The translations under genes were made by a program, and so were the position numbers. 64,000 nt of DNA. It comes from Lachnospiraceae bacterium (lineage in GTDB: Bacteria > Bacillota > Clostridia > Lachnospirales > Lachnospiraceae). This document shows, in pieces, positions 997 to 32,728 of this stretch. The notes under the pieces are model-generated. The model was not told where the DNA came from and did not search any database. It saw only the letters and a program-made list of their open reading frames with translations. The stretch spans positions 100,109 to 164,108 of the forward strand of contig JAAUZE010000008.1 of NCBI GenBank assembly GCA_014804755.1, read 5' to 3'. Every line of letters starts with the position of its first letter. Positions within the stretch are counted from its first letter, which is position 1.

Positions 997-2106
997 ATGG
1001 AGGACATGATGCTGGAAAGCGCCCTGTATCAGGAGGATCTGAAAAAAATAAATGAGGTCGTCTTTTCGGGAGAGGAACTCGAACAGAAAAATGTTTTGAT
1101 CACGGGAGGAACCGGCCTGATCGGTTCCTGTCTTGTCGATGTGTTACTCTTCAGAAATGAACATCTGGGAACGCATATCGGTATCTGGGTGCTGTGCCGC
1201 AATGAGGCGCGCGCGAAAGAGGTATTCGGAACCTATTTGGATAAAGAATACTTTCACCTGATCGTTCAGGACGTTTCCGTACCGCTGCCGCCGGATGCTC
1301 CGAAATCCATGGACTATATCATTCACGCCGCAAGCAAGGGAGATCCGAACAGCTTTGTCACAGATCCGCTCGGTGTGATGAATGCGAATGTATTAGGAAT
1401 GCATTGGCTTTTAGAATATGCGAAGCAGGTAAAAGTAAAAAAAATCCTATATCTGTCCAGCGGGGAGGCATACGGAAAGGTGGATCTGCCGGAGGATCTT
1501 CCAATCTCAGAGACAATGACGGGGCTGCTTGACAGTCTGAAAGTCAGAAACTGTTATGGCATTTCAAAACGGGCGGCGGAGACGATGTGCGTCAGTGCGG
1601 CATGTGAATATCAGGTTCCGGTATGCATCGCAAGATTGTGCCATATCTATGGACCGACCATGACGACGGGTGAAAACAGAGTGATTTTTCAGTTCCTCCG
1701 GAAAGCATTGGATCAGGAGGAAATTGTATTAAAAAGCGAAGGGCTTCAAAGGCGGTCTTACTGCTATGTGGCGGATGCGGCGGCGGCACTGTTTACGATC
1801 CTTTTCCGGGGCGCTCCGGGGGAAGCTTATAATGTGTCGAATGAAAAATCCGTCGTGACGATCCGCGGGCTTGCGGAAATCCTCGGCAGCTATGCGGGAA
1901 GCGGCGTAAAATATGAACAGCAGACAGAGTCAGAGCGCAGAGGAAATTCCGGCATTATGCACGCGGTGCTTGATAATCAGAAGCTCTTAGAGCTCGGCGT
2001 TCGTATGGAATATGATATGGAGGCCGGATTAAAGAGGACGTTGGAAATTATGAAGGAGCAAGAAGATGAAAAAAGAAATCGGGATTGTCATATGCAATTA
2101 CAATAA
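997..2106 (+). CDS. NAD-dependent epimerase/dehydratase (extended SDR)
   Basis: Rossmann motif 'ITGGTGLIGSCLV' and catalytic 'YGISK' (YxxxK). The start may be the ATG at 1009, which has better SD spacing. Confidence 0.8.
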   Translation: MEDMMLESALYQEDLKKINEVVFSGEELEQKNVLITGGTGLIGSCLVDVLLFRNEHLGTHIGIWVLCRNEARAKEVFGTYLDKEYFHLIVQDVSVPLPPDAPKSMDYIIHAASKGDPNSFVTDPLGVMNANVLGMHWLLEYAKQVKVKKILYLSSGEAYGKVDLPEDLPISETMTGLLDSLKVRNCYGISKRAAETMCVSAACEYQVPVCIARLCHIYGPTMTTGENRVIFQFLRKALDQEEIVLKSEGLQRRSYCYVADAAAALFTILFRGAPGEAYNVSNEKSVVTIRGLAEILGSYAGSGVKYEQQTESERRGNSGIMHAVLDNQKLLELGVRMEYDMEAGLKRTLEIMKEQEDEKRNRDCHMQLQ

Positions 2107-3391
2107 ACAGGACTATGTGCTCAAATGTCTGGAATCTTTATTTGCTTCTGATACGGACGATTTTGATGTCTACGTCGTGGACAACGCATCGCAGGATGAT
2201 TCCGTAAAACTGATCAGAGAACAATTCGGGGATCGCGTAACGCTTTTGGTCAATCAGGAAAATCTGGGCGGCTCCGGCGGGTTCAACACAGGACTCAGAA
2301 AAGTGCTGGAGAGCGATTACAAATATTTGATGTGCGTGGATAACGATATTGTATTTGCTCCCGATGCGGTCAGCGCGCTGCGCCGCTTTTTGGAGGAGCA
2401 CGAGGATACGGCGGTGGTAGGCAGCAAAGCGTACTTTATGGACGAGCCGGATAAGATCTGGAATTTCGGCGGGATCATCCGCTTTGATACCTTTATTCAG
2501 CAGGATCAGCATAAAAATTGTATCGATGCGGGACAACTTCCGGAGGTGGTATACGGCGATTATGTTCCCGCCTGCTCTCTGATGGCGCGGGTGGATGCGG
2601 TCAGGAAGGTCGGTATCATGCCGGAGGATAATTTTATTTATTGGGACGATATGGAATGGGGGTATCGATTCCGGCAGGCAGGCTATAAGGTCGCGTCCTA
2701 CGGAAAATCGAAGGTGTGGCACAAGGCCGGGGGCAGGAATGCGGGAAACACCTTTATTCATTACTATATGTGGCGGAATCGGATTCATTTTTTCAGACAG
2801 TTTCTTCCGCCGGAGGACAGGGAACGTTTTGCGGAAAGTCTGCTGACAGAAATGTTCCGAATGATCTATAGCGTCAACCTAAAAGGAGAGACGAATATCA
2901 TACGGACGCTCATGTATGCCTTTGACGACGCCGTACACGGAGTAAGGGGAAAAGCAAAAGAGGGAAGAATTCTGCCAAGGCCTGCCGTGGCGAACCGGTT
3001 AGAGCAGGCATTGTCGGGAAAAGAAAGCGTGCTGATCCGATTTAACGGAAGCTTTGAGGGGATCGGAAACATTATCAAAAATATACGGAAAACCCTGCCG
3101 GATATGCGGATCGCGATTTCCACGGCGGACTGTCCTGAGCAAGTGAAAGAGCTGACAACGCAGTATCCGGACTGTGAAGTCACGGAGCGCTATGAGCCGG
3201 AGAAATTTGCGGCCCATCTGGTCATGTGCGAGCATATTTTTAAGCTGTCACCGGACATGGAAAAGGACTGTTATATCGATCCGTGGTGCAACCTGATCTA
3301 CACGGCAAAAGATTTTATCTATGCCAGCAGCTTTGAGCAGACCAAGGATTTGTTTGTGCTGTGTAAGAAAGAGCTTTTGTGCGGCGATTGA
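2066..3391 (+). CDS. family 2 glycosyltransferase (GT-A) with ~200 aa C-terminal extension
   Basis: 'IGIVICNYNK...' then 'VVDNASQD' and 'CVDNDIV' (DXD) motifs. SD AAGGAG precedes the ATG. Overlaps the upstream gene by 41 nt. Confidence 0.8.
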   Translation: MKKEIGIVICNYNKQDYVLKCLESLFASDTDDFDVYVVDNASQDDSVKLIREQFGDRVTLLVNQENLGGSGGFNTGLRKVLESDYKYLMCVDNDIVFAPDAVSALRRFLEEHEDTAVVGSKAYFMDEPDKIWNFGGIIRFDTFIQQDQHKNCIDAGQLPEVVYGDYVPACSLMARVDAVRKVGIMPEDNFIYWDDMEWGYRFRQAGYKVASYGKSKVWHKAGGRNAGNTFIHYYMWRNRIHFFRQFLPPEDRERFAESLLTEMFRMIYSVNLKGETNIIRTLMYAFDDAVHGVRGKAKEGRILPRPAVANRLEQALSGKESVLIRFNGSFEGIGNIIKNIRKTLPDMRIAISTADCPEQVKELTTQYPDCEVTERYEPEKFAAHLVMCEHIFKLSPDMEKDCYIDPWCNLIYTAKDFIYASSFEQTKDLFVLCKKELLCGD

Positions 3392-3422
3392 AAGCGGACG
3401 TAAAGTATGGAGGAGGAAAGCG

Positions 3423-4847
3423 ATGGATCCGGTTGTAGTATTTGGCGCAGGAACCGGCGGGAAGATCGTGAAGTGGATGCTGAATGATTTTGGTATTCCG
3501 GTCAGGGCCTTTACGGATAACGGCAAGGATAAGTGGGGTACAATACTGGACGGGATTCCGGTGATTCCTCCGGATTCTTTATATGATGACGAAAGCAGGA
3601 TTGTGATCGCAAGCACCTGGGAGAGTGAGATCAGGAAGCAATTGACTGAAATGGGATTGAAAGACCGTGTGGTTGAGAAAGAGGTCTTTATGTATCAATA
3701 CCTGGAACAAAGCGCGGGGGTATATTCCGACCTTTCCGGGTATCCGATCGACAGCAGTAAAAAGCCAACGTTTTTATTCGGCACGGATCTCGGGTTATAC
3801 CAGGGCGGCGTGGAGAGCTGGACCTATACGGTAGCGGACGAGTTAAGAAAAAGGGGATACGGGATCAAGATTCTGACCAATCAGACCTCGCAGCCTGCAC
3901 CGGAACGGTTTCAAAACGACACCTATTATCTGAATATGCGGGGGCGGGAATATTGCAGTGGTTTACGTGATACAGTCCATGTGATCATGGAAAATGCGCC
4001 CTGCGTGGTCATTGATTCCTGGCAGAGCATGACGATGCTTGCGGCGGCAATCGTGAAAAGGCAGAATCAGGTTGCTGTTCGACAACTGATAGAGATAGTA
4101 CATAATAATCTGCCACGGCTCTTTGGAATCGTGAAGAAATTTGAAGCTGAGATCAATGCCTGTATGGGAGTGAGCAGGGATATTAATCGGAGTCTGGTCG
4201 AAGAATATCAAATGGCGCCGGAGAAGGTGCATTATAAAGAGAGCCCGGTAAAATATGATGCAGGCATAGGGCGGGATTATATGTCTGACGAGAGTCAGCC
4301 GCTTCGGATCGGGTACGCGGCGAGGTTGTCGAAAAGTCAGAAAAGGGCGGATTTACTGCCGGAATTGATGGACAGACTGATGGAACGCAAGGTTCATTTC
4401 CGCATGCAGATTGCCGGAAGCGGAGCTCTGCGCGATATGATTCAAAACCATATCACGGAAAAGGGGTACGCGCAGTTTGTGTCCCTTACAGGCTATATTC
4501 CAAGGGAAGAGATGAATCGTTTTTGGAGCAGTCAGGATATTTTTATTAATCTGTCCGAATACGAAGGCACTAGTCTGTCAATGTTGGAGGCGATGGGGAA
4601 CGGATGTGTTCCGATCGTTACGAAAGTCGCCGGATGCGAGGAGTTTGTCGCAGAGGACATGGGATATCTCTGTGAAATCGGTGATCTGGATGCCATGGCG
4701 GAAAAAATTGCATATCTTGACCGGCATAGAGAAAAGCTTGGGCAGATGGGACAGAAAGCGTGTGAATCCGCTAGAAGAAAATGCAGTGTGGAAGCATATG
4801 TGGATCATCTGCTGGGATTGACGGCTGAGGGCAGGGAAAAGGGATAA
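3423..4847 (+). CDS. family 4 (GT-B) glycosyltransferase with N-terminal Rossmann-like domain
   Basis: GT4 E-x7-E motif 'EYEGTSLSMLEAMGNGCVPIV'. SD GGAGGAGG lies before the ATG at 3423; the upstream ORF extension overlaps the GT2 and is rejected. Confidence 0.75.
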   Translation: MDPVVVFGAGTGGKIVKWMLNDFGIPVRAFTDNGKDKWGTILDGIPVIPPDSLYDDESRIVIASTWESEIRKQLTEMGLKDRVVEKEVFMYQYLEQSAGVYSDLSGYPIDSSKKPTFLFGTDLGLYQGGVESWTYTVADELRKRGYGIKILTNQTSQPAPERFQNDTYYLNMRGREYCSGLRDTVHVIMENAPCVVIDSWQSMTMLAAAIVKRQNQVAVRQLIEIVHNNLPRLFGIVKKFEAEINACMGVSRDINRSLVEEYQMAPEKVHYKESPVKYDAGIGRDYMSDESQPLRIGYAARLSKSQKRADLLPELMDRLMERKVHFRMQIAGSGALRDMIQNHITEKGYAQFVSLTGYIPREEMNRFWSSQDIFINLSEYEGTSLSMLEAMGNGCVPIVTKVAGCEEFVAEDMGYLCEIGDLDAMAEKIAYLDRHREKLGQMGQKACESARRKCSVEAYVDHLLGLTAEGREKG

Positions 4848-6294: not shown

Positions 6295-6490
6295 GCAGCA
6301 CAGAGATGTCGAATGAAAATGTGTATATTATCGCCGGATGTGCCGTTCTTGGGAATAAAATAGTACAAACGGGATAAAGTGTAGTGCAAAATAAAATAAA
6401 GTATGATATGATACAAGTTAGGTTAAATATATCGGACGCGTCCGGAGAGGGCGCAAAAATATCACGTTTATCATTAGGAGGAAAGAAAAC

Positions 6491-6967
6491 ATGAAAAAAG
6501 GCGGCGTAGCAGTATTTTCCACATTGGTCGGAGCGATTGCAGGGTTTGCGGGAAGCTCCTATCTGGGCAACAAGCAGGTTGCACAGAAGGCAGAGAAGGT
6601 TGACAAGTTCAAGGGTTATTACAACATGCTTAATCAGTGGCTTGTATTAAAGCAGGAGGGTAAATCCTTAGAGAAGTACTTCACGGACAACGGTTATAAG
6701 ACGATTGCCATCTACGGTATGGGAGAGATGGGAAACCGTCTGTATGACGAGCTGAAGGGGACTTCCGTAACCGTAAAATACGCGGTTGACAAAAATGCGG
6801 CAAGCACTTACTCCGAGTTGGATGTCATTGATCCCGAGGACGATTATGAAGAGGTTGACGCGATCGTTGTCAGCGCGATCTTCGCTTTTGATGAGATTGA
6901 GGAGATGCTGAGCGACAAAGTTGAATTCCCGATCGTATCCTTAGAGGATGTCGTGTACGAGGTATAA
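6491..6967 (+). CDS. membrane-anchored hypothetical protein
   Basis: N-terminal TM helix; the 'IAIYGMGEMGNRLYDEL' segment echoes the N-terminal domain of the GT4 at 3423. SD AGGAGG. Confidence 0.5.
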   Translation: MKKGGVAVFSTLVGAIAGFAGSSYLGNKQVAQKAEKVDKFKGYYNMLNQWLVLKQEGKSLEKYFTDNGYKTIAIYGMGEMGNRLYDELKGTSVTVKYAVDKNAASTYSELDVIDPEDDYEEVDAIVVSAIFAFDEIEEMLSDKVEFPIVSLEDVVYEV

Positions 6968-7038
6968 GCGCGGGAAGCGTTTGCCGGGAAGATCACAGAA
7001 GCTGTGATAGAACGGTTTTGTTTATGATGATAGTGGCA

Positions 7039-7071
7039 GGCGCCCAAGTCATAAGACTTGGGCGCTTTTCT
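7039..7071 (+). terminator. rho-independent terminator
   Basis: Stem GGCGCCCAAGTC/GACTTGGGCGC, loop ATAA, followed by TTTTC. Confidence 0.6.
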
Positions 7072-7449
7072 TAGCTTATAGGAAACTCTTTTTTACACGA
7101 TTCAACCGTCAGGTGAATTTTTATATCAAAACATCTGGTCATTGTAACAACGAATAGGATATCTGCTCTTGCTTTTTTGCCGATCAGGATTCATAATATT
7201 TGATAAGCAGCGATTGTGAATCGCAGAACATAATATGTGCGTAACTTTGCTTGTGGATAAGAGATAAGGAGGGATGCACGATGCTGTGTCATATGCGCAT
7301 TGACTTAGGATTCAATCTCTGTACAAGGTCTGATCGTTGGGCAATCCTTGTGCAGAGGGAAAACTAAGAGAATATTCATTGCCCGCATCGGATTTTGTAC
7401 TTATAGGGAACCGCAAATATGAAAAAATAACTATAAGGAGAGAAATTCG

Positions 7450-8724
7450 ATGAATCATAATTATAAAAAATATATTGTTTTTTGGTTAAGTCAGGCGGTA
7501 TCGCAGCTTGGAAGTCAGCTCACGGGGTTTGCATTGATTCTGTGGGCGTATTCACAGAACCATTCTGCGATGACGGTTTCTTTGATGTCCTTTTTTAACT
7601 ATGTACCTTACATTTTAGTGAGTCTGGCGGCGGGAGCGTTTGTTGACAGCCATAGCAAAAAGGGGATCATGCTGGTATCGGATACGATCGCGGCGATCTG
7701 TTCCGTGGTCGTACTCTTTTTAAGCATGTCGGGAGGGCTGCGGGTCTATCATATCTATATGGTCAATTTTGTGATCGGGCTGACGAGCGCGTTCCAAGGA
7801 CCCGCGTCCGCGGTGGCGGTCGGAAAAATGGTGCCGGAGGAGAAACTTGCACAGGTGAGCGGGATGAACTCTTTTTCGGGTAATCTGATCATGGTGTTGG
7901 CGCCGGTGCTTTCCGCGTCGTTATTTGCATTTGGCGGATTAACGATGGTATTAGTGGTTGATCTGTCAAGCTTTGTTTTTGCATTTGCGGTGCTGCTGTT
8001 ACTGATATATATTCCCGAAAATGAGCGGTTACAAGACGATAAAAAATCAATATTTGAAGGATGTGCGGAAGGGTTTCGTTATCTGGCGCGGCAGAAGGCG
8101 ATTTTCACGATCATCATTACGATGGCGCTGCTCAATTTTTTCTCAAGGCTTACCTATGAGAATATTTTGTCGCCCATGATCCTGGCAAGGAGCGGAAATG
8201 ATTCTTTGACGCTCGGGATCGTAAATGCGGTGATGGGGATCGGCGGCATTGCAGGCGGAATTTTGGTTGCCGCGGGGAAGTTTTCGAAGAATAGCGTAAA
8301 GATGATTTATTTTTCCGCGATGTTGTCTTTTTTGCTGGGCGATCTTCTGATGGGTATGGGACGCGGCGTTGTCCTGTGGTCGTTTGCGGGACTGATGGCA
8401 AGTCTGCCGATTCCGTTTATCAATGCGGGTCAGAATGTCATTTTTTATCGTACGGTGCCGACGGAAATGCAGGGCCGGGTATTTGCGGTGAGAAACGCCA
8501 TTCAGTTCTGCACGGTTCCGGTTGGCATCTTATTAGGAGGATTTTTGGCCGACTATGTCTTCGAACCGTTTATGGCGGCGGAATACGGTGTGGTTTCTGC
8601 GCTTCAATTGCTCGTCGGGAAAGGCGCAGGAAGCGGTATGGCGGTGATGTTTTTGTGCACGGGGCTGTTGGGAAGCTTTTTCAGTTATGTGTGCTACAGA
8701 ATCTATGAGAGTCATGCGGAATAA
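7450..8724 (+). CDS. MFS transporter
   Basis: 424 aa with about 12 predicted TM helices and MFS-like loop motifs. Confidence 0.85.
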   Translation: MNHNYKKYIVFWLSQAVSQLGSQLTGFALILWAYSQNHSAMTVSLMSFFNYVPYILVSLAAGAFVDSHSKKGIMLVSDTIAAICSVVVLFLSMSGGLRVYHIYMVNFVIGLTSAFQGPASAVAVGKMVPEEKLAQVSGMNSFSGNLIMVLAPVLSASLFAFGGLTMVLVVDLSSFVFAFAVLLLLIYIPENERLQDDKKSIFEGCAEGFRYLARQKAIFTIIITMALLNFFSRLTYENILSPMILARSGNDSLTLGIVNAVMGIGGIAGGILVAAGKFSKNSVKMIYFSAMLSFLLGDLLMGMGRGVVLWSFAGLMASLPIPFINAGQNVIFYRTVPTEMQGRVFAVRNAIQFCTVPVGILLGGFLADYVFEPFMAAEYGVVSALQLLVGKGAGSGMAVMFLCTGLLGSFFSYVCYRIYESHAE

Positions 8725-8792
8725 AAAGAAGAATTTAACGTAAGAGAATGTATAGCAGCGGAGCGGCAGATAAGGACTGAAAGGGGAAACGA

Positions 8793-9635
8793 TTGGACAG
8801 ACTGTTACTCATTGACGGAAGCAACCTGTTGTTTCAAATGTTTTTTGGCATGCCGGCAAGAATCGTAAACGGGCAGGGAAAAGCGATTCAGGGGACGCTC
8901 GGCTTTGTGGGCGCCATGTTAAAAATCATCCGCATGGTGGAACCCACGCATATGGCGGTCCTATTTGACGGAGAGCATGAAAATCCCCGATGTGAGCTGG
9001 ATTCCGCTTACAAAGCGAACCGGCCGGATTATAGCACGGTATGTGAGGAAGAAAACCCGTTTTCCCAGCTGCCGGATGTATATAAAGCGTTGGATTTCCT
9101 TGGAATCAGGTACATAGAAACGATGGATTGTGAGGCGGACGATCTGATCGCCGGTTATGCGCTGTCATTCGGTCGGAATGAGGAGGTCGTGATCGCATCG
9201 TTTGACAGTGATTTTTTTCAGCTTATCACGGACAAGGTATCCGTGCTTCGTTATCGCGGTGAAAAAACAATGATCTGCACGCCGGAATATGTCAAGGAGA
9301 AATTTGATATTGCGCCGGAGCAATATGCGGATTGGAAATCGCTTGTGGGCGATACGGCGGACAACATTAAAGGTGCGGAAAAGGTTGGCGCAAAGACGGC
9401 GGCTTCGCTGCTTCATGAGTTTGGCACGCTGGAACAGGTTCTTTTTTATGCGGAAAAGATCGCAAAACCGTCCGTGAGACAATCCATCCTCCGGAATGCA
9501 GACAGGCTTCGGGTCAACTATCAAATGATCAAGCTTGCGGGCGGGGCGGCGCTGCCGTTCAGCGGGCAGGAATTGAAGTACCGCTATGACGGAAGGACGA
9601 CCAATGAGGTGTTGACGGGGATCGGATTGCGGTGA
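8793..9635 (+). CDS. 5'-3' exonuclease (Pol I N-terminal/FEN-like)
   Basis: 'LLLIDGSNLLFQ...' PIN/5'-nuclease motifs and a helix-hairpin-helix (H3TH) region. Apparent TTG start. Confidence 0.8.
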   Translation: MDRLLLIDGSNLLFQMFFGMPARIVNGQGKAIQGTLGFVGAMLKIIRMVEPTHMAVLFDGEHENPRCELDSAYKANRPDYSTVCEEENPFSQLPDVYKALDFLGIRYIETMDCEADDLIAGYALSFGRNEEVVIASFDSDFFQLITDKVSVLRYRGEKTMICTPEYVKEKFDIAPEQYADWKSLVGDTADNIKGAEKVGAKTAASLLHEFGTLEQVLFYAEKIAKPSVRQSILRNADRLRVNYQMIKLAGGAALPFSGQELKYRYDGRTTNEVLTGIGLR

Positions 9636-14393: not shown

Positions 14394-14654
14394 ATGGCAC
14401 AGGCAATGATTAATTTTCGGATGGATGAAGAATTAAAAAAGAATATGGAAGAAATTTGCAAAGATTTAGGATTAAGCATGACAACCGCATTTACTATTTT
14501 TGCAAAAAAAATGACAAGAGAAAAAAGAATTCCGTTTGATGTATCGTTAGATCCGTTTTATTCAGAAAGTAATATGTCATATTTGAAAAAGGTAGTAGAC
14601 GATATTGAATCAGGAAAATCGGTTCTTTCTGAGCATGAATTACTCGAGGATTAA
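14394..14654 (+). CDS. type II antitoxin, RelB/DinJ family
   Basis: 'MAQAMINFRMDEELKK...FTIFAKKM' ribbon-helix-helix pattern; lies 3 nt upstream of the toxin gene. Confidence 0.7.
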   Translation: MAQAMINFRMDEELKKNMEEICKDLGLSMTTAFTIFAKKMTREKRIPFDVSLDPFYSESNMSYLKKVVDDIESGKSVLSEHELLED

Positions 14655-14657
14655 TGC

Positions 14658-14921
14658 ATGAAGATACTTTGGGAGGAGCGCGCCTGGGAAGAATACTTAG
14701 AGTGGCAGATACAAGACAAGAAAACATTAAAAAGGATTAATGCTCTCATCAAAGAGATACAAAGGAACTGCTACGAAGGGATTGGTAAGCCGGAACCATT
14801 AAAAAATAATTTAAGTGGGTGGTGGAGCAGGCGTATTGATGAAGTAAATCGAATTGTTTATAAAGAAAAAGATGGAGCGGTTATTATAGCATCATGCAAG
14901 GGACATTATGAGGATACATAA
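14658..14921 (+). CDS. yoeB: type II toxin YoeB/Txe family
   Basis: 'WEEYLEWQ...KPEPLKNNLSGWWSRRIDEVNRIVY' closely matches the YoeB consensus. Confidence 0.85.
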   Translation: MKILWEERAWEEYLEWQIQDKKTLKRINALIKEIQRNCYEGIGKPEPLKNNLSGWWSRRIDEVNRIVYKEKDGAVIIASCKGHYEDT

Positions 14922-16831: not shown

Positions 16832-17248
16832 TTATTCTCTCCGAATAATCTTTCTCATACCGCAGCCGCAATATTCGTGCGGTATTTTTTTGAAACCGAG
16901 AGATTCGTAAAACGGTTCTTTTCCCGGCTCCGCAATGAGTTGAATACTTGACCTGCCGCCTGCGGGCGTGTGATCGGATACATAGGTTAACAGCATATTC
17001 AGAATGGTGGTGCCGATTTTTTGCTTTTGAAAATCAGGGCGCACGATGACATCCGCGATCAGATCATATTGTCCGTCGCCGATCAATCTGCCCATGGCGA
17101 TCGTTTCATTATGTTCAACCGCGGTTGCGATATACAGGCTGTTTCGGATCGCATTCTCTGATTGCTCCTTTGAAAAGTTGAGCCATCCGACACTTTCGCG
17201 CAGTTTCGCGTAGTCTTCATAAGATAAGGTATTTTCTTTGTATTCCAT
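16832..17248 (-). CDS. GNAT N-acetyltransferase
   Basis: GNAT motif A 'RPDFQKQKIGTTIL'. SD AAAGGATGA precedes the ATG at 17248. Confidence 0.7.
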   Translation of the reverse strand: MEYKENTLSYEDYAKLRESVGWLNFSKEQSENAIRNSLYIATAVEHNETIAMGRLIGDGQYDLIADVIVRPDFQKQKIGTTILNMLLTYVSDHTPAGGRSSIQLIAEPGKEPFYESLGFKKIPHEYCGCGMRKIIRRE

Positions 17249-17255
17249 GCTGTGT

Positions 17256-17516
17256 TCATCCTTTCCGATTATTCGGGGTGAAAAAGCCCCAGACACAATT
17301 GCTGAATTCTCCGGCGGCAAATGTATGCTGCTGACCATGAATCTTAGCAGTATAAATAGGAAACTTGTATTCCTGACCGTATAAGGGGTCATGAACCGTT
17401 GCGGATTCATGGGTCGGTTTCCATTTGTACTTAAATATATTGACGCCAAATAGGTTTGTATCTCCATCGACACCGGTTACTTCATGCTGCCATGCTTGTT
17501 CTTTCGGGGATTCCAT
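17256..17516 (-). CDS. hypothetical protein (86 aa)
   Basis: Good SD AGGAAAGGAA; ends 8 nt before the GNAT start. Confidence 0.4.
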   Translation of the reverse strand: MESPKEQAWQHEVTGVDGDTNLFGVNIFKYKWKPTHESATVHDPLYGQEYKFPIYTAKIHGQQHTFAAGEFSNCVWGFFTPNNRKG

Positions 17517-17713
17517 ATCGTCGGTTCCTTTCCTTGATAAGCCCTGTCAATCTGGTCTGTTTCATAAAATCATAGCATACTCGCGTTCATATTTCTATAA
17601 CAGTATTGATAAACTGGAATTTTCATGGTATTTGATCGTGAAAGAAATCAGATGGACAACCAGTGTGCGCAATTGCATAATGATTAAAAAACAAAAGAGG
17701 AGCGTGTCTGATT

Positions 17714-18640
17714 ATGAATACGTTACATTGTTGCATGAGGGAATATTTGGAATATTGTCATTATCGGAAGCGGTTGGATTCCAAGACATTGAAGGCTTAT
17801 CGTATTGACTTAAAACAGTATGAGGATTTTTGCGCCGGGGTATCTGATTGTTTTTCCCAAAATGCGGTGGACAATTTTATCACCTGTCTGCACAAACGGT
17901 ATAAGCCCAAAACGGTCAAGCGGAAGATCGCAAGCTTAAAAGCCTTTTTTCATTACATGGAATATAAAGAAATATTGCATGAAAATCCGTTCGTAAAGCT
18001 GGACGTCCGTTTTCGGGAAGCGAAGCTCTTGCCTAAGACCATTCCGTTTCATTCGATACAGGCATTTCTCTCTGCCATCTACACACAAAAAGAACAGGCA
18101 AAATCAGAATATCAGCGGCGATGCTGCGTCAGAGATATTGCCGTGATGGAGTTATTGTTTGCGACAGGAATGCGGATATCGGAGTTGTGTTCGTTAAAAC
18201 CCGCGGATATAGACCTTGAGAGCAATAACATTTTGATATACGGAAAAGGTGCAAAAGAGCGGATGATCCAGCTTGGTAATCGGGAGGTAATCGCTGCGTT
18301 GGTACAGTATCGGGAGACATTTAGAGAGGACATAGAGGTTTGCGGGTATTTTTTTGTGAATCGGTTACAGCATAAGCTATCCGATCAGTCGGTCCGTTTT
18401 ATGATCAATCACTATGCGGAGCTTGCGGGCATCACGCAGCACATCACGCCGCATATGTTCCGGCATTCTTTTGCCACACTTTTATTGGAGCAGGACGTCG
18501 ATATCCGCTATATTCAAAGGATGCTTGGGCACAGCTCCATTAGCACGACGGAGATTTATACGCATGTGTCGAACGCAAAGCAGAAGGATATTTTGGTGCG
18601 CAAGCATCCGAGGAATTTGATGGAGGTGAATGGAGGATAA
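17714..18640 (+). CDS. site-specific tyrosine recombinase (XerC/XerD-like)
   Basis: Catalytic 'HMFRHSFATLLL' and 'LGHSSISTTEIYTHV' (R..H-R-Y box). The stop codon lies inside the left inverted repeat. Confidence 0.85.
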   Translation: MNTLHCCMREYLEYCHYRKRLDSKTLKAYRIDLKQYEDFCAGVSDCFSQNAVDNFITCLHKRYKPKTVKRKIASLKAFFHYMEYKEILHENPFVKLDVRFREAKLLPKTIPFHSIQAFLSAIYTQKEQAKSEYQRRCCVRDIAVMELLFATGMRISELCSLKPADIDLESNNILIYGKGAKERMIQLGNREVIAALVQYRETFREDIEVCGYFFVNRLQHKLSDQSVRFMINHYAELAGITQHITPHMFRHSFATLLLEQDVDIRYIQRMLGHSSISTTEIYTHVSNAKQKDILVRKHPRNLMEVNGG

Positions 18641-18700
18641 TAAGAAATTATCTATTGAATAATGATTTGTATATTGTGAAAAACACCAATTTATCGGAGG
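18634..18700. repeat. IR-L: 67-bp inverted repeat AGGATAATAAGAAATTATCTATTGAATAATGATTTGTATATTGTGAAAAACACCAATTTATCGGAGG
   Basis: Exact reverse complement of 20587-20653. Ends in GGAGG, 5 nt before the ATG at 18706. Confidence 0.9.
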
Positions 18701-18705
18701 TTGAT

Positions 18706-19383
18706 ATGCATGTTCCTAAAGACGCTATTTTAATGCTATCTGGAGTATCATGTGTTGGAAAAACAACTGCAGCGTATGAGATAGTGAAGAATTATCCTGA
18801 ATTTAGAAGAGTAAGTGAATATGATTTGCTGAGAACAGTTGTGCGAACCGCATATGAATGTTTGGCTGAAGAAGCTTATATAGACAAGGATGAATTAATA
18901 AGTAAATATCATGCGTTGTTTGAGTCTATTACAAATAGCAATTTTGAAATTACCAAGTTACAGTCAGAACAATTACTTCCCTACGTTAAGGAGATAATTC
19001 TCAGACAACAAAGGCGACGGATACCAACTATAATAGAAGGTACTGGTATTATACCAAGCGCATATTTTCCTAATAATCAGCCATTAGCATGGTTATCAAA
19101 ACACGTAGTATTTATTAATCTATATATCTCTGACGAGGAAGATCACATTTCCCGAAGACAATCGCGTTCGGAGGAACGTGATTATCATGAATCGGCCAGT
19201 AAAACAGAAATAATTATTTCCCAATCTAGAGCAGGAAAAAATCAGTTATTACATATGCAGGCAATTAAGTTGCAGCAAAAATTTAAAAATGTGTTTAGCT
19301 TGGATGTTTCAAATTATACTCCAAGTCATATGGCAAGCAAAATAATGGAACTTGTTTTTGATTATTTTGATACCTATAACTAA
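18706..19383 (+). CDS. P-loop NTPase/kinase-like protein
   Basis: Walker A 'GVSCVGKTT'. ATG sits 5 nt after the IR-borne GGAGG. The track start 18655 is a TTG inside the repeat. Confidence 0.7.
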   Translation: MHVPKDAILMLSGVSCVGKTTAAYEIVKNYPEFRRVSEYDLLRTVVRTAYECLAEEAYIDKDELISKYHALFESITNSNFEITKLQSEQLLPYVKEIILRQQRRRIPTIIEGTGIIPSAYFPNNQPLAWLSKHVVFINLYISDEEDHISRRQSRSEERDYHESASKTEIIISQSRAGKNQLLHMQAIKLQQKFKNVFSLDVSNYTPSHMASKIMELVFDYFDTYN

Positions 19384-19392
19384 CAATATGAC

Positions 19393-20580
19393 TTATATAT
19401 CGTACAATTCGTTGTAGAGCTTTTCGGTCAAGGGAACCGCTTGTTCCCATACGTTTAAAAATGTATCATAAAGATGTTTTCCACGGCTTTGTATATCATT
19501 TTCGGAAATTTCTATTATTTCAAATGAAGAATTAGTAATTTGGAGAGGGTATCCTTCGCTGTCACATATTATTGGACTATAAAGCACGGCGTTATCACTT
19601 ATGATTATAGATTCTTTGCGTGGGCATTTGTATAGCCTAATCATTTCGCTTATAGGCAAGTGAAATCTATTTTGCATCCTAACAGCCGCTTCCAAACAGG
19701 TTTGTAAATCTGCTAAGAATCTCCTCTCTTTGTCTTTGCTTACAGCTTTGGTCATAGCTTCGCTTTTTGGATGTGGAAATAGACATTTAAAATCCACCCC
19801 ATTATTTATTCCTTCAATGGCTAGATACTTAAAAAAATCATCATTTTCACCTGTAAATATTTTTTTATTCCTTCTGCCATAAAACCATAAACGTTTGCCT
19901 TGATAATCAATTACATTTCGAATAAGTATTTTCGTAAGAACGCTGGTTGAAAATCCTTTATGAAAAAGAATATGCTCCTTGGTTATTTCAGGACTAACTA
20001 TTGTGAAATTTCCATGGTTGTCCTTCATAATTTGCTCAACCAAATCTCTGCAAGTGTCGGGAATCATTTGTTCACGTTGCAAGATCATTTTAACTTCTTT
20101 TATATATGCATTCCAGTGACTATTGAAGTTTTTGATATCTGTATTAGAATCTTTTGCCAATTCTTGTAAAAAACGTTTGAATTCCTCTCGTGATTTCTTA
20201 AAATTATCATTTTCATTATTTAAACGTATAGGGACATAACGATTTAGAGGTTTATCTACCCATGATGACCAATCGGGAATATGTTCAAATAATATTGGTA
20301 TAACTATACTTCCTCCTGGCTCTGCAAAATGTGCACCATACACTACACCTGCTTCATACATTAACCAAGGATTCTTAAAATTATCTGATGTTATACAAAC
20401 GATACATTTATCACTTCTCAAAAGATTATTATGTATTTCATTATCAACGGATGTCCCTTTATACATATCGGGAGAAAAAAACACTTCAATTTTATTTTCT
20501 AATGTATTCAAGATGAATTTTTTTGTTTCTAATGCTAATAATTTACTTTTATCTTTTGACCAGCTAATAAATATTTCCAC
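19393..20580 (-). CDS. TIR-domain protein with uncharacterised C-terminal domain
   Basis: 'IFISWSKDKS', 'EVFFSPD' and 'CIVCITSDNFKNPWLMYEAGVV' match bacterial TIR boxes, including the putative catalytic Glu. GTG start sits 6 nt after the IR-borne GGAGG. Confidence 0.7.
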   Translation of the reverse strand: MEIFISWSKDKSKLLALETKKFILNTLENKIEVFFSPDMYKGTSVDNEIHNNLLRSDKCIVCITSDNFKNPWLMYEAGVVYGAHFAEPGGSIVIPILFEHIPDWSSWVDKPLNRYVPIRLNNENDNFKKSREEFKRFLQELAKDSNTDIKNFNSHWNAYIKEVKMILQREQMIPDTCRDLVEQIMKDNHGNFTIVSPEITKEHILFHKGFSTSVLTKILIRNVIDYQGKRLWFYGRRNKKIFTGENDDFFKYLAIEGINNGVDFKCLFPHPKSEAMTKAVSKDKERRFLADLQTCLEAAVRMQNRFHLPISEMIRLYKCPRKESIIISDNAVLYSPIICDSEGYPLQITNSSFEIIEISENDIQSRGKHLYDTFLNVWEQAVPLTEKLYNELYDI

Positions 20581-20586
20581 TTTGTT

Positions 20587-20653
20587 CCTCCGATAAATTG
20601 GTGTTTTTCACAATATACAAATCATTATTCAATAGATAATTTCTTATTATCCT
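20587..20653. repeat. IR-R: reverse-complement copy of IR-L
   Basis: 100% identity over 67 bp to 18634-18700 in inverted orientation. Confidence 0.9.
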
Positions 20654-21025
20654 TTATCTTTAGAAACTACATCAACAGATACCGTTGAATACTTATTCGT
20701 CCAGCCCGTCAGACGACCTTTTATTACCCAATAACAAATGATCCAGTAGCATCCCATCTACCTAATTTTGTATTGTACTACACGATTGTGCGTATTTCAA
20801 CATCTTTCTCAAATATTCAGTAAATACATACAAGCATTCTTAACTGCTGTCTTTTGCCATGAATATTAAGTTTGCTAATCTCGCCGCTTTACACTATCCA
20901 AGATTTATGAGAAAATGGTTCTGAATTAAGTCAAAACAGTTGAATAAAGTTGCGCAAAGCCCAACTTGCCAATATATACCCATTAACACAGTCTCCGTTG
21001 CTGGAGTATGCGAAAGGAGTCCATC

Positions 21026-21559
21026 ATGTTCTACACCCTCAAAAACGGAAAATCAGTCACTATCAGAAAACCAATCACCAAGGACGCGCAGGACATCGTC
21101 TCCATCATTTCCACCGCAGATGTGGAGACGTTGTTTTTGGCGCGTAATCCGGGCGAGTTCCGCACGACCGCGGAGCGAGAAGAAGCGGTCATTGAAGGCG
21201 TCTTAGCCGATGATGACAGCACATGGTTTGTGGCAGAATACGAGGGCAGGCTGGTAGGTCAATGCTCTGTGGGACTTGTGAGGCGGTATCAGAGATATCG
21301 GCATAGAGCTGAGGTTGCGTTTGTGATCCTGAAAGATTATCAAGACTTAGGAATCGGTGGGAAGATGATGGAGGAATGCATCAAGTGGTGCAGGGAGAAA
21401 GAAGTCACGCAGATCGAACTGGATGTGGTCACAGCCAATCAAAAAGCGCTTTCCATGTATTTGGGCTTTGGATTTGAAGTGACAGGGACCTTGCCGAATG
21501 CATTGCGCTATATGGACGGGACATACGCAGACGAATATAAAATGGTAAAGCGTCTGTAG
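21026..21559 (+). CDS. GNAT N-acetyltransferase
   Basis: 'ILKDYQDLGIGGKMM' motif A. SD AAAGGAG. Confidence 0.75.
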   Translation: MFYTLKNGKSVTIRKPITKDAQDIVSIISTADVETLFLARNPGEFRTTAEREEAVIEGVLADDDSTWFVAEYEGRLVGQCSVGLVRRYQRYRHRAEVAFVILKDYQDLGIGGKMMEECIKWCREKEVTQIELDVVTANQKALSMYLGFGFEVTGTLPNALRYMDGTYADEYKMVKRL

Positions 21560-31039: not shown

Positions 31040-31400
31040 AAGTGAAGGTTTGTGGTGTCGAGGGTTCGAATCCCTCCCGTGTAAACGGTAGCTCAGTGGG
31101 TAGAGTGCACAACATTATGGCAAGACCTGTAAAGTCTGCGGTTCGAATCCGCCCAAAGCAATACTTTTATCCCGATTTCAGGCAAATTCTGCATCTCTGT
31201 GAAGCGCAAAGGATTGCGAAGCAGGGAAAGCGTGAGGGCGCCAAATCAGTCTGCGGCCTGAAGGCCGGGGATACCGCAGATCGGAAGGAGGAACAACACT
31301 CTGTAAAGAATATTGAGAAACGGTGATGATATCCCTTTACAGAGTGCCCTTCCTCCCCACGGTCTGCTGAACCGGGCTTCCGCTTCAGACTGATGAATGA
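31040..31400 (+). ncRNA. structured tRNA-mimic RNA (Y-RNA/YrlA-like candidate)
   Basis: Two T-arm mimics (31060-31076 and 31137-31153, GGTTCGAATCC loops). D-arm mimic TAGCTCAGTGGGTAGAG at 31089-31106 with U8/A9/G18G19. 12-bp perfect hairpin 31297-31308/31335-31346 and long-range pairing 31255-31263/31386-31394. No acceptor or anticodon stems. Confidence 0.45.
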
Positions 31401-32554: not shown

Positions 32555-32597
32555 TCTAATTAGTTCTTCATGTTTTGGTTATATTGTGTTAAAATAA

Positions 32598-32640
32598 CAG
32601 ATATGGCTCCGGCGGGGAGCCATATCTGTGTTATAAATTC
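32598..32640 (+). terminator. rho-independent terminator
   Basis: 13-bp perfect stem CAGATATGGCTCC/GGAGCCATATCTG with loop GGCG. Confidence 0.6.
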
Positions 32641-32728
32641 AAATTTGTTTAAACAACCATTACTACAACTGAATAAATAACACAACGTCAGAGCGAAATC
32701 CCAATCGTAATTCACGGAGGAACATAGA

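Follow-up and report, generated by a model that had tools for sequence, protein, structure and literature searches.

The locus described here lies in a stretch of 64,000 nucleotides (nt) from a Lachnospiraceae bacterium (GenBank assembly GCA_014804755.1, contig JAAUZE010000008.1, positions 100,109 to 164,108 of the forward strand), which is called the window below and to which all positions refer unless a related contig is named. It comprises a gene for a Xer-like tyrosine recombinase and, immediately downstream, a cassette of two convergent genes bracketed by a perfect inverted repeat (Table 1). One of the two genes codes for a P-loop kinase-like protein and the other for a TIR-domain protein. 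An earlier note on the same DNA had proposed that the recombinase flips the cassette and thereby exchanges the gene that lies behind it. The computational analysis reported here follows up that proposal.

Table 1. Features of the recombinase gene, the cassette and their borders, in window positions (aa, amino acids)
Feature	Positions	Strand	Remarks
Promoter-like site TGGACA-17-CATAAT, upstream of the recombinase gene	17653..17681	+	10 of 12 matches; count in the region not above shuffled sequences
Xer-like tyrosine recombinase, 308 aa	17714..18640	+	Phage_integrase 8e-42; catalytic residues
Left inverted-repeat arm (dyad, 43-nt leader, ribosome-binding site)	18634..18700	+	
Left dyad GGATAAT-AAGAA-ATTATC, proposed recombinase core site and crossover point	18635..18652	.	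Rarity of the motif; breakpoints in relatives
P-loop small-molecule or nucleotide kinase-like protein, 225 aa, next to the recombinase	18706..19383	+	
TIR-domain protein, 395 aa, with C-terminal PLD-like-fold domain; far position	19393..20580	-	Pfam TIR_2 1.7e-8
Right inverted-repeat arm (inner end, ribosome-binding site of the TIR gene; outer end, dyad 20635-20652)	20587..20653	-	
Far-flank promoter-like site TTGAAA-17-TACAAT (20800-20772, 10 of 12 matches) and weak terminator-like hairpin (20688-20672), facing the cassette	20672..20800	-	

The recombinase, the repeats and the two genes

The recombinase matches the Pfam family Phage_integrase together with an N-terminal SAM-like domain, and its catalytic residues (R154, H247, R250, H273 and Y282) are all present. 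The NCBIfam models of XerC and XerD align with it over the full length at 239-247 bits, the equivalog cut-offs being 330-335. Since the scores are under the cut-offs, the protein is Xer-like and not the housekeeping XerC or XerD. Its TAA stop codon (18638-18640) falls inside the left arm of the repeat, as the earlier note had pointed out, and in the related locus L025 the stop overlaps the dyad too.

The two arms are 67 nt long, 1886 nt apart and complementary at every position (67/67, in agreement with the earlier count), and they are the sole long inverted repeat in the window. From its outer to its inner end, each arm consists of the dyad GGATAAT-AAGAA-ATTATC, a leader of about 43 nt and the ribosome-binding site GGAGG (18696-18700, and the complement of 20587-20591), which precedes the start codon of the kinase gene (ATG) by 5 nt and that of the TIR gene (GTG) by 6 nt. 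With respect to both start codons the dyad lies 54-71 nt upstream, and the repeat spans -5 to -72. As the same leader and GGAGG stand in front of both genes, the translation-initiation region is common to the two.

The core site of a tyrosine recombinase is made of two short inverted arms and a spacer of 5-7 nt, which is what the dyad appears to resemble. In its degenerate form, RATAAY-N5-RTTATY, the dyad occurs twice in the 64 kb, both times at the outer ends of the repeat; shuffled sequences are expected to have 0.11 occurrences, and none reached two. The motif also borders the cassette in nearly every related lineage. A search for further dyad sites in the window turned up only one, with one mismatch, on the minus strand within the kinase gene (18779-18797, GGATAATTCTTCACTATC). 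It is probably there by chance, and may be a pseudo-site.

The leader yielded little else. An Rfam scan of 17000-21500 gave zero matches, and folding of the leader was not above that of shuffled sequences (z = -0.11), the dyad hairpin excepted. A promoter within the repeat was considered and dropped: none was convincing by eye or by scan, and several lineages have a repeat that consists of nothing but the dyad. The earlier note had called the cassette A+T rich between flanks of about 50% GC. Its interior is indeed A+T rich, at 32.6% GC, but the 5-kb flanks are at 41-42% and the recombinase gene is at 44.1%.

The TIR and kinase genes are the only two open reading frames (ORFs) between the arms. 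They converge, with their stops 9 nt apart, and the starts given to them earlier, ATG 18706 and GTG 20580, are each backed by an alignment of 33 homologues. A more upstream start of the kinase gene, TTG 18655, was dropped since the homologue alignments do not back it. Both ORFs are intact in cassettes across TIR identities of 31-100%.

The TIR protein has 94 homologues at 35-91% identity, and the invariant glutamate of the domain (E76, in the motif PWLMYEAG) is kept across those that were aligned. The best structural match of the TIR domain is the TIR domain of SpbK. The defense-system search PADLOC gave a partial match of the N-terminal part only to its model 'TIR-TM', and had no match for either the kinase or the recombinase. 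Neither the TIR protein nor the kinase yielded anything informative in sequence searches against solved structures, and no full-length match to the cassette was found in phage and plasmid records. The TIR protein most likely serves immunity in the manner of Thoeris or SpbK, by consuming NAD or by producing a signal.

In the P-loop protein a Walker A motif is present and the LID-type arginines are invariant. No family could be assigned to it by sequence, its NCBIfam kinase matches being weak and far under cut-off. An exhaustive profile search delineated a small kinase family of 89 representatives at E ≤ 1e-10. Some distant members of the family are C-terminal domains of fusion proteins, joined to a TIR domain (P0196, P0219 and P0220), to DUF4062 (P0232) or to Metallophos (P0262 and P0271). 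The match of P0196 to the kinase profile covers the whole length (225 columns, 31% identity, probability 99.8). The TIR fusions tie the kinase domain functionally to TIR domains.

Orientation of the cassette in related lineages

A cassette that inverts should be found in the opposite orientation at related loci. This was looked for, and in five related lineages both orientations were found between identical flanks, the breakpoints lying always within the RATAAY-N5-RTTATY dyad. In the P0032 lineage (63% TIR identity), the flanks of L013 and L014 are reversed at 100% identity and the 1973-bp cassette is direct at 99.9%. Here mismatches directly outside the 21-bp core swap partners, which places the crossover inside the core. 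In the P0043 lineage, where the repeat is the 21-bp dyad AAGGATAATTCTTTATTATCC alone, the kinase gene comes after the recombinase gene in three contigs (L044, L045 and L048) and the TIR gene does so in two others (L046 and L047). The two orientations are represented by L054 against L055 and L058 in P0173 (19-bp repeat), and by L065 against L066 in P0110 (34-bp repeat, flanks 100% identical). In P0001, the lineage at 91% TIR identity, the TIR gene is joined to the far flank in L076 and to the recombinase in L077; there are three dyads in tandem here, and the breakpoint maps to the outermost. P0043 and P0001 share the layout of the window, with the recombinase directly upstream. Finally, L025, the closest relative with a homologous recombinase (83% aa identity), has that recombinase collinear with the one in the window and the cassette inverted. 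These loci support the proposal that flipping exchanges the gene behind the recombinase.

The three tandem dyads of P0001 (L076:3858-3958 and L077:147-247) stand before the TIR gene and have the spacers tgaat, tttta and aagta; L023 has two. L076 and L077, which come from different assemblies, both end at the same point of the kinase gene, equivalent to window position 19024, and this suggests a further rearrangement point.

The two orientations were also counted, including places collapsed as similar. The kinase gene was on the recombinase or operon side in about 13 places and the TIR gene in 6-7 in P0032; the corresponding numbers are 5 and 2 in P0043, 8 and 5 in P0173, 2 and 1 in P0110, and 10 and 0 in P0007. 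The arrangement with the kinase gene on that side is the commoner of the two in assemblies, and both are present among species-representative genomes.

Another line of evidence comes from the way the assemblies break. Homologues of the TIR and kinase genes are often on contigs of about 1.9-2.0 kb, the assemblies breaking at the repeats. Logan contigs break as expected of assemblies made with k=31: the 67-bp repeat of L002 and the 34-bp repeat of L068 are each cut off after exactly 30 nt. Contigs that run from repeat to repeat with repeats of 19-21 bp recur across dozens of samples. Examples are L021, found in at least 6 samples with 21 nt of repeat at each end, L062, found in at least 20 with 19 nt, and the ENA contig L051, which likewise extends exactly from repeat to repeat. 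As repeats shorter than 30 nt should not by themselves break k=31 contigs, the breaks imply two continuations, that is, both orientations in one sample. The behavior of the assemblies therefore points to mixed orientations within single samples, consistently across lineages.

A homologous recombinase (29-83% identity) adjoins the cassette in most lineages. It can be on either side and in either direction, running with the kinase gene, with the TIR gene or divergently. The neighboring recombinase would seem to be the invertase. In L065 and L066 the cassette was inverted with no recombinase within 4 kb, so it is possible that the recombinase acts in trans.

From these findings we consider it likely, with a probability of about 0.7, that the locus is a site-specific invertible cassette of two genes, which the recombinase flips to switch the proximal gene. 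The adjacent Xer-like enzyme, or a paralogue in trans, would recombine the inverted dyads of about 19 bp (GGATAAT-N5-ATTATC) at the outer ends of the repeat and so flip the 2-kb segment. The gene next to the recombinase would be expressed from the recombinase transcript, in second place, by way of the leader and the ribosome-binding site in the repeat. In the window the proximal gene is the kinase-like one, and after inversion it would be the TIR gene. A population could in this manner hedge between kinase-on and TIR-on states. We infer both the mutually exclusive expression and the biochemical roles of the two proteins.

Expression of the cassette and rival explanations

In every lineage, both ends of the cassette have a ribosome-binding site beside or within the repeat, and in the lineages with short repeats it abuts the dyad. 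At loci with a divergent recombinase, a near-consensus promoter (TTGTGA or TTGTAA, 17 nt, TATAAT) ends 12-14 nt short of the dyad, and only on the side of the recombinase. In L054 the module of promoter, dyad and ribosome-binding site is duplicated, one copy standing before each of two cassettes and on one side only, and in L030 the promoter module is likewise one-sided. Where the recombinase is co-directional, as in the window, the promoter is absent between the recombinase and the dyad, and hence the proximal gene should be co-transcribed with the recombinase. A candidate promoter for such a recombinase-plus-proximal-gene transcript is the site upstream of the recombinase gene (Table 1), which, such sites being no more numerous in the region than in shuffled sequences, is a lead only. 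Expression would come from the recombinase side only. The convergent genes, which are 9 nt apart in the window and overlap by 4 nt in L044 and L054, have no terminator between them. The proximal transcript would therefore continue antisense through the distal gene, which favors either/or expression, and we regard this as the simplest reading.

Several observations weigh against this reading, or against parts of it. The window locus itself was seen in one orientation only. Its comparison set is one long assembly and the k=31 contigs L002 and L075, and since the 67-bp repeat exceeds k-1, the two contigs break there for technical reasons and are uninformative on orientation. P0007 has a single orientation in 10/10 places among those listed (23 contigs), so that some lineages may be biased or locked. 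L023, L064 and L065 are without a recombinase nearby. The promoter scans are weak, and the 10/12 site in the far flank of the window and a near-consensus one in L033 face the cassette; far-side genes of L003, L044, L024 and L025 point into it. Given such inward sites and genes, the distal gene may also be transcribed. The role of the far-flank elements in the window is uncertain, and the promoter-like site among them is not conserved: five lineages have none, and L033 has the near-consensus one. Lastly, other organisms have fusions of the kinase domain with TIR domains, and in L036, a non-invertible relative, a P-loop gene and a TIR gene are in an operon. The fusions and the operon suggest that the two proteins work together, which fits poorly with strictly either/or expression.

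The gene pair of L036 (6426-8143) consists of a guanylate-kinase-like P-loop gene that precedes and overlaps a distant TIR-PLD-like homologue in the same direction, and is possibly the operon form of the TIR-plus-kinase pair. The guanylate-kinase-like gene resembles the cassette kinase at the Walker A motif only, and the neighbor of another non-invertible distant TIR homologue, L038, is an unrelated membrane protein. The idea of an operon ancestor therefore rests on one case.

How, then, do other explanations of the locus fare? The dyads could primarily be boundaries for recombinase-mediated double-crossover exchange of the cassette between loci, with inversion a by-product of little regulatory meaning. 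The cassette in the window is, from dyad to dyad (18636-20652), 92% identical to that in L024 and 89% identical to that in L023, with unrelated flanks; the recombinase of L024 is only 46% identical to that in the window, and L023 has none. Some leaders have two or three tandem dyads with differing spacers (L023, L076 and L077), and the interior is at 32.6% GC, against 41-44% around it. The dyad-to-dyad identity between unrelated flanks, together with the low GC, does indicate horizontal exchange of the cassette as a unit. That mobility came first is nevertheless rather unlikely in our view: inversion happens often enough for assemblies to be split by it in dozens of samples, a ribosome-binding site at the repeat on both sides in all lineages is the design of an expression switch and is needless for mobility, and none of the cassettes was found on phage or plasmid records. 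We think it more doubtful still that both flanks transcribe into the cassette and both genes are always on, inversion deciding which of them is behind the stronger or differently regulated promoter and so resetting the ratio of TIR protein to kinase, as for a toxin and its antidote or an enzyme and its regulator. The promoter-like sites that face the cassette in the far flanks of the window, L033, L029 and L030 speak for such a promoter swap, as do the inward genes on the far side of L003 and L044, where the gap is without a terminator-like site, and those of L024 and L025. The Rosetta-stone fusions of kinase and TIR domains and the operon of L036 similarly argue for one pathway. However, strong transcription from both sides would collide, as the genes are 9 nt apart, or overlap by 4 nt in L044 and L054, with no terminator. 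Moreover, the far flank lacks a promoter-like site in five lineages, and the duplicated module of L054 is on a single side of each cassette.

It is improbable that the locus is a fixed relic that no longer flips, the repeats being kept identical by shared regulation or gene conversion and the recombinase being an island integrase or a dif-type resolvase. The single orientation seen at the window locus and in P0007 (10/10 listed places, 23 contigs) would be explained in this way, and the recombinase does resemble XerC/XerD over its full length. On the other hand, it scores under the XerC/XerD equivalog cut-offs, and its stop codon overlaps the dyad in both the window and L025. Its catalytic residues are intact, as are the two ORFs and the pair of perfect dyads. 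The closest lineages flip (P0001, at 91%), and the cassette of L025 has the opposite orientation to that in the window. A transposon or insertion sequence, with the repeats as its terminal inverted repeats, was suggested by their perfection and by the A+T rich cargo; that they might be the ends of a larger transposon had also been raised in the earlier note. This reading was rejected. There is no transposase inside, the cargo being the kinase-like and TIR genes, no target-site duplication is found (flanking letters ...gtgaatgg and ttatcttt...), and what the relatives show is inversion within unaltered flanks, not insertions and empty sites. A site-specific invertible cassette thus remains the reading we prefer.

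Cassettes in other contexts and related systems

In three related lineages the cassette adjoins Thoeris-like STALD effectors. A ThsB gene and a PNP_UDP_1-STALD gene lie upstream of it in L013 and L014, a PNP-STALD gene beside it in L054, and a gene for a 612-aa TIR-STALD protein beside it in L065, L024 and L025. No STALD/SLOG or ThsB gene was found in the 64-kb window, STALD having been searched for by tblastn with three STALD effectors. L054 also has a second flip cassette (1814-3539), with a 30-bp repeat (1814-1843 and 3510-3539) that contains the dyad and the ribosome-binding site. It holds a PNP_UDP_1-STALD effector gene convergent with a gene for 105 aa, whose product, by eye (FISY...SKWVLKELE; no Pfam hit), looks like a minimal TIR domain. 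This cassette too exists in both orientations (L054 against L056), and the contig L058 is chimeric for its two states, which again points to mixed orientations within a sample.

More tentatively, there may be a family of flip cassettes: two convergent immune-type genes each, preceded by a common leader that contains a dyad and a ribosome-binding site, exchanged from dyad to dyad and chainable behind one recombinase. Gut Clostridia and their relatives would run with them a combinatorial, phase-variable choice of Thoeris-like signal producers, effectors and the TIR-associated kinase. If so, L054 would have four combinations, mini-TIR or PNP-STALD followed by kinase or TIR-PLD-like protein, and the family would represent recombinase-driven hedging of costly innate immunity.

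The nearest known parallels are the vpma locus of Mycoplasma agalactiae and the vsp locus of M. bovis, where the tyrosine recombinases Xer1 and Mbr act at sites in 72-nt 5′ leaders, and inversion links a silent gene to the expression site (PMC2268961). The cassette in the window is similar in that the locus includes the gene of a Xer-like tyrosine recombinase, the sites are in a conserved 5′ leader of each alternative gene (-1 to -72 in vpma/vsp, -5 to -72 in the window), and inversion would join a whole silent gene to an expression site outside the segment. It differs in its payload, two unrelated cytoplasmic enzymes instead of a family of variable surface lipoproteins, and in having two genes only, convergent and in one compact cassette. 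Its single outside promoter is a candidate only. The hosts are gut Clostridia and relatives, and the cassette is apparently exchanged horizontally as a unit.

In the G segment of phage Mu and the C segment of P1, 2-3 kb between short inverted repeats hold opposed alternative gene sets that are expressed from outside, and the invertase (Gin or Cin) is encoded next to the segment. Gin and Cin belong to the serine invertases and depend on an enhancer and on Fis; they swap the variable part of a tail-fibre gene that is fused to a constant part outside. The window shares with these the opposed alternative genes in a segment bounded by short repeats and the recombinase next door. In contrast, the enzyme is a tyrosine recombinase, the genes are whole and have their own ribosome-binding sites, and the payload is unrelated to tail fibres.

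Thoeris comprises a TIR signal producer, ThsB, and an effector, ThsA, with a SLOG/STALD or Macro sensor, and SpbK is a single-protein TIR defense. Like them, the TIR protein in the window has the invariant catalytic glutamate, its best structural match being the SpbK TIR domain, and the cassette resembles Thoeris in the STALD effectors that adjoin it in the three lineages, PNP-STALD and TIR-STALD. Unlike Thoeris, the window has no STALD/SLOG effector in its 64 kb, and unlike ThsB, its TIR protein carries a C-terminal PLD-like-fold domain. We know of no Thoeris type with a P-loop kinase or an invertible layout. To our knowledge, TIR-type anti-phage genes are costly or lethal when active, and their regulation at the population level is largely unknown.

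Recombinase-driven inversions are known to diversify anti-phage genes within a population in the hsdS shufflons of Type I restriction-modification systems, in BREX and in DISARM (PMC9881135, PMC7672463). Those inversions recombine parts of specificity genes, whereas the cassette would exchange two complete and unrelated genes at an expression site. The literature on TIR or Thoeris together with inversion, including surveys of invertons and programmed inversions, was searched, and this cassette was not found described. A 2026 paper raises inversion as a regulator of defense genes, as speculation only (PMC13552941). The novelty lies in the payload, a TIR/kinase pair, and in a modular cassette that is exchanged horizontally; the switching logic is known from Xer1 at vpma/vsp and from Mu G. 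The statement in the earlier note that the architecture was not known to be described therefore holds for the TIR/kinase payload and the Thoeris-like link, and does not hold for whole-gene switching by a Xer-like enzyme, as in vpma/vsp, or for convergent invertible genes, as in phage Mu.

A heritable and reversible DNA switch appears to choose between a TIR immune protein and a kinase with TIR-fused relatives, and a switch of this kind also controls Thoeris-like effectors at related loci. Through the pairing, a family of uncharacterized kinases is connected with TIR biology. The cassettes should make the phase-variable innate immunity of gut commensals tractable, as they occur in a cultured strain (L035) and in a genome that is not a metagenome-assembled genome (MAG; L037). 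A compact recombinase with a pair of sites of about 19 bp is also a possible tool for two-state gene switching. For metagenomics the cassettes are a warning, since they systematically fragment assemblies into contigs of about 1.9-2.0 kb.

Some further observations concern the relatives. The cassettes of L035 (from the cultured mouse-gut Petralouisia muris NM01_1-7b) and L037 (Lachnospiraceae bacterium 47-T17) are distant, at a TIR identity of 31-33%, and the L035 contig ends within a 55-bp repeat. L023, from a Butyrivibrio MAG, has an orphan cassette (6882-8993) with a 113-bp repeat that contains one mismatch and no recombinase within 7 kb; its neighbors are GGDEF/EAL genes and a DUF4143 fragment. 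In L054, a PycTM gene fragment (1-140) and a trio of DUF2971, DUF4238 and Nuc_deoxyrib_tr genes (6339-8681) are neighbors of the defense type. The far flank of L025 (8952-12541) has genes for a thymidylate-synthase-like protein, a 5-hmdU DNA kinase (HMUDK_hel), a thymidylate kinase and TIR-STALD, all directed inward, which could be a thymidine hypermodification module in a defense context. In the P0032 lineage an IS3-family element (HTH_Tnp_1 and rve; L013:3729-4861) is inserted directly beside the far dyad.

The immediate surroundings of the cassette in the window are not an obvious defense island. About 3 kb upstream of the recombinase gene is a RelB/YoeB toxin-antitoxin pair (14394-14921), followed by MerR-family, methyltransferase and GNAT genes. 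Farther downstream in the window there are two imperfect inverted repeats of the hairpin type, one at 31276-31367 (33 nt, 79%, 26-nt gap) and the other at 32584-32642 (27 nt, 78%, 5-nt gap).

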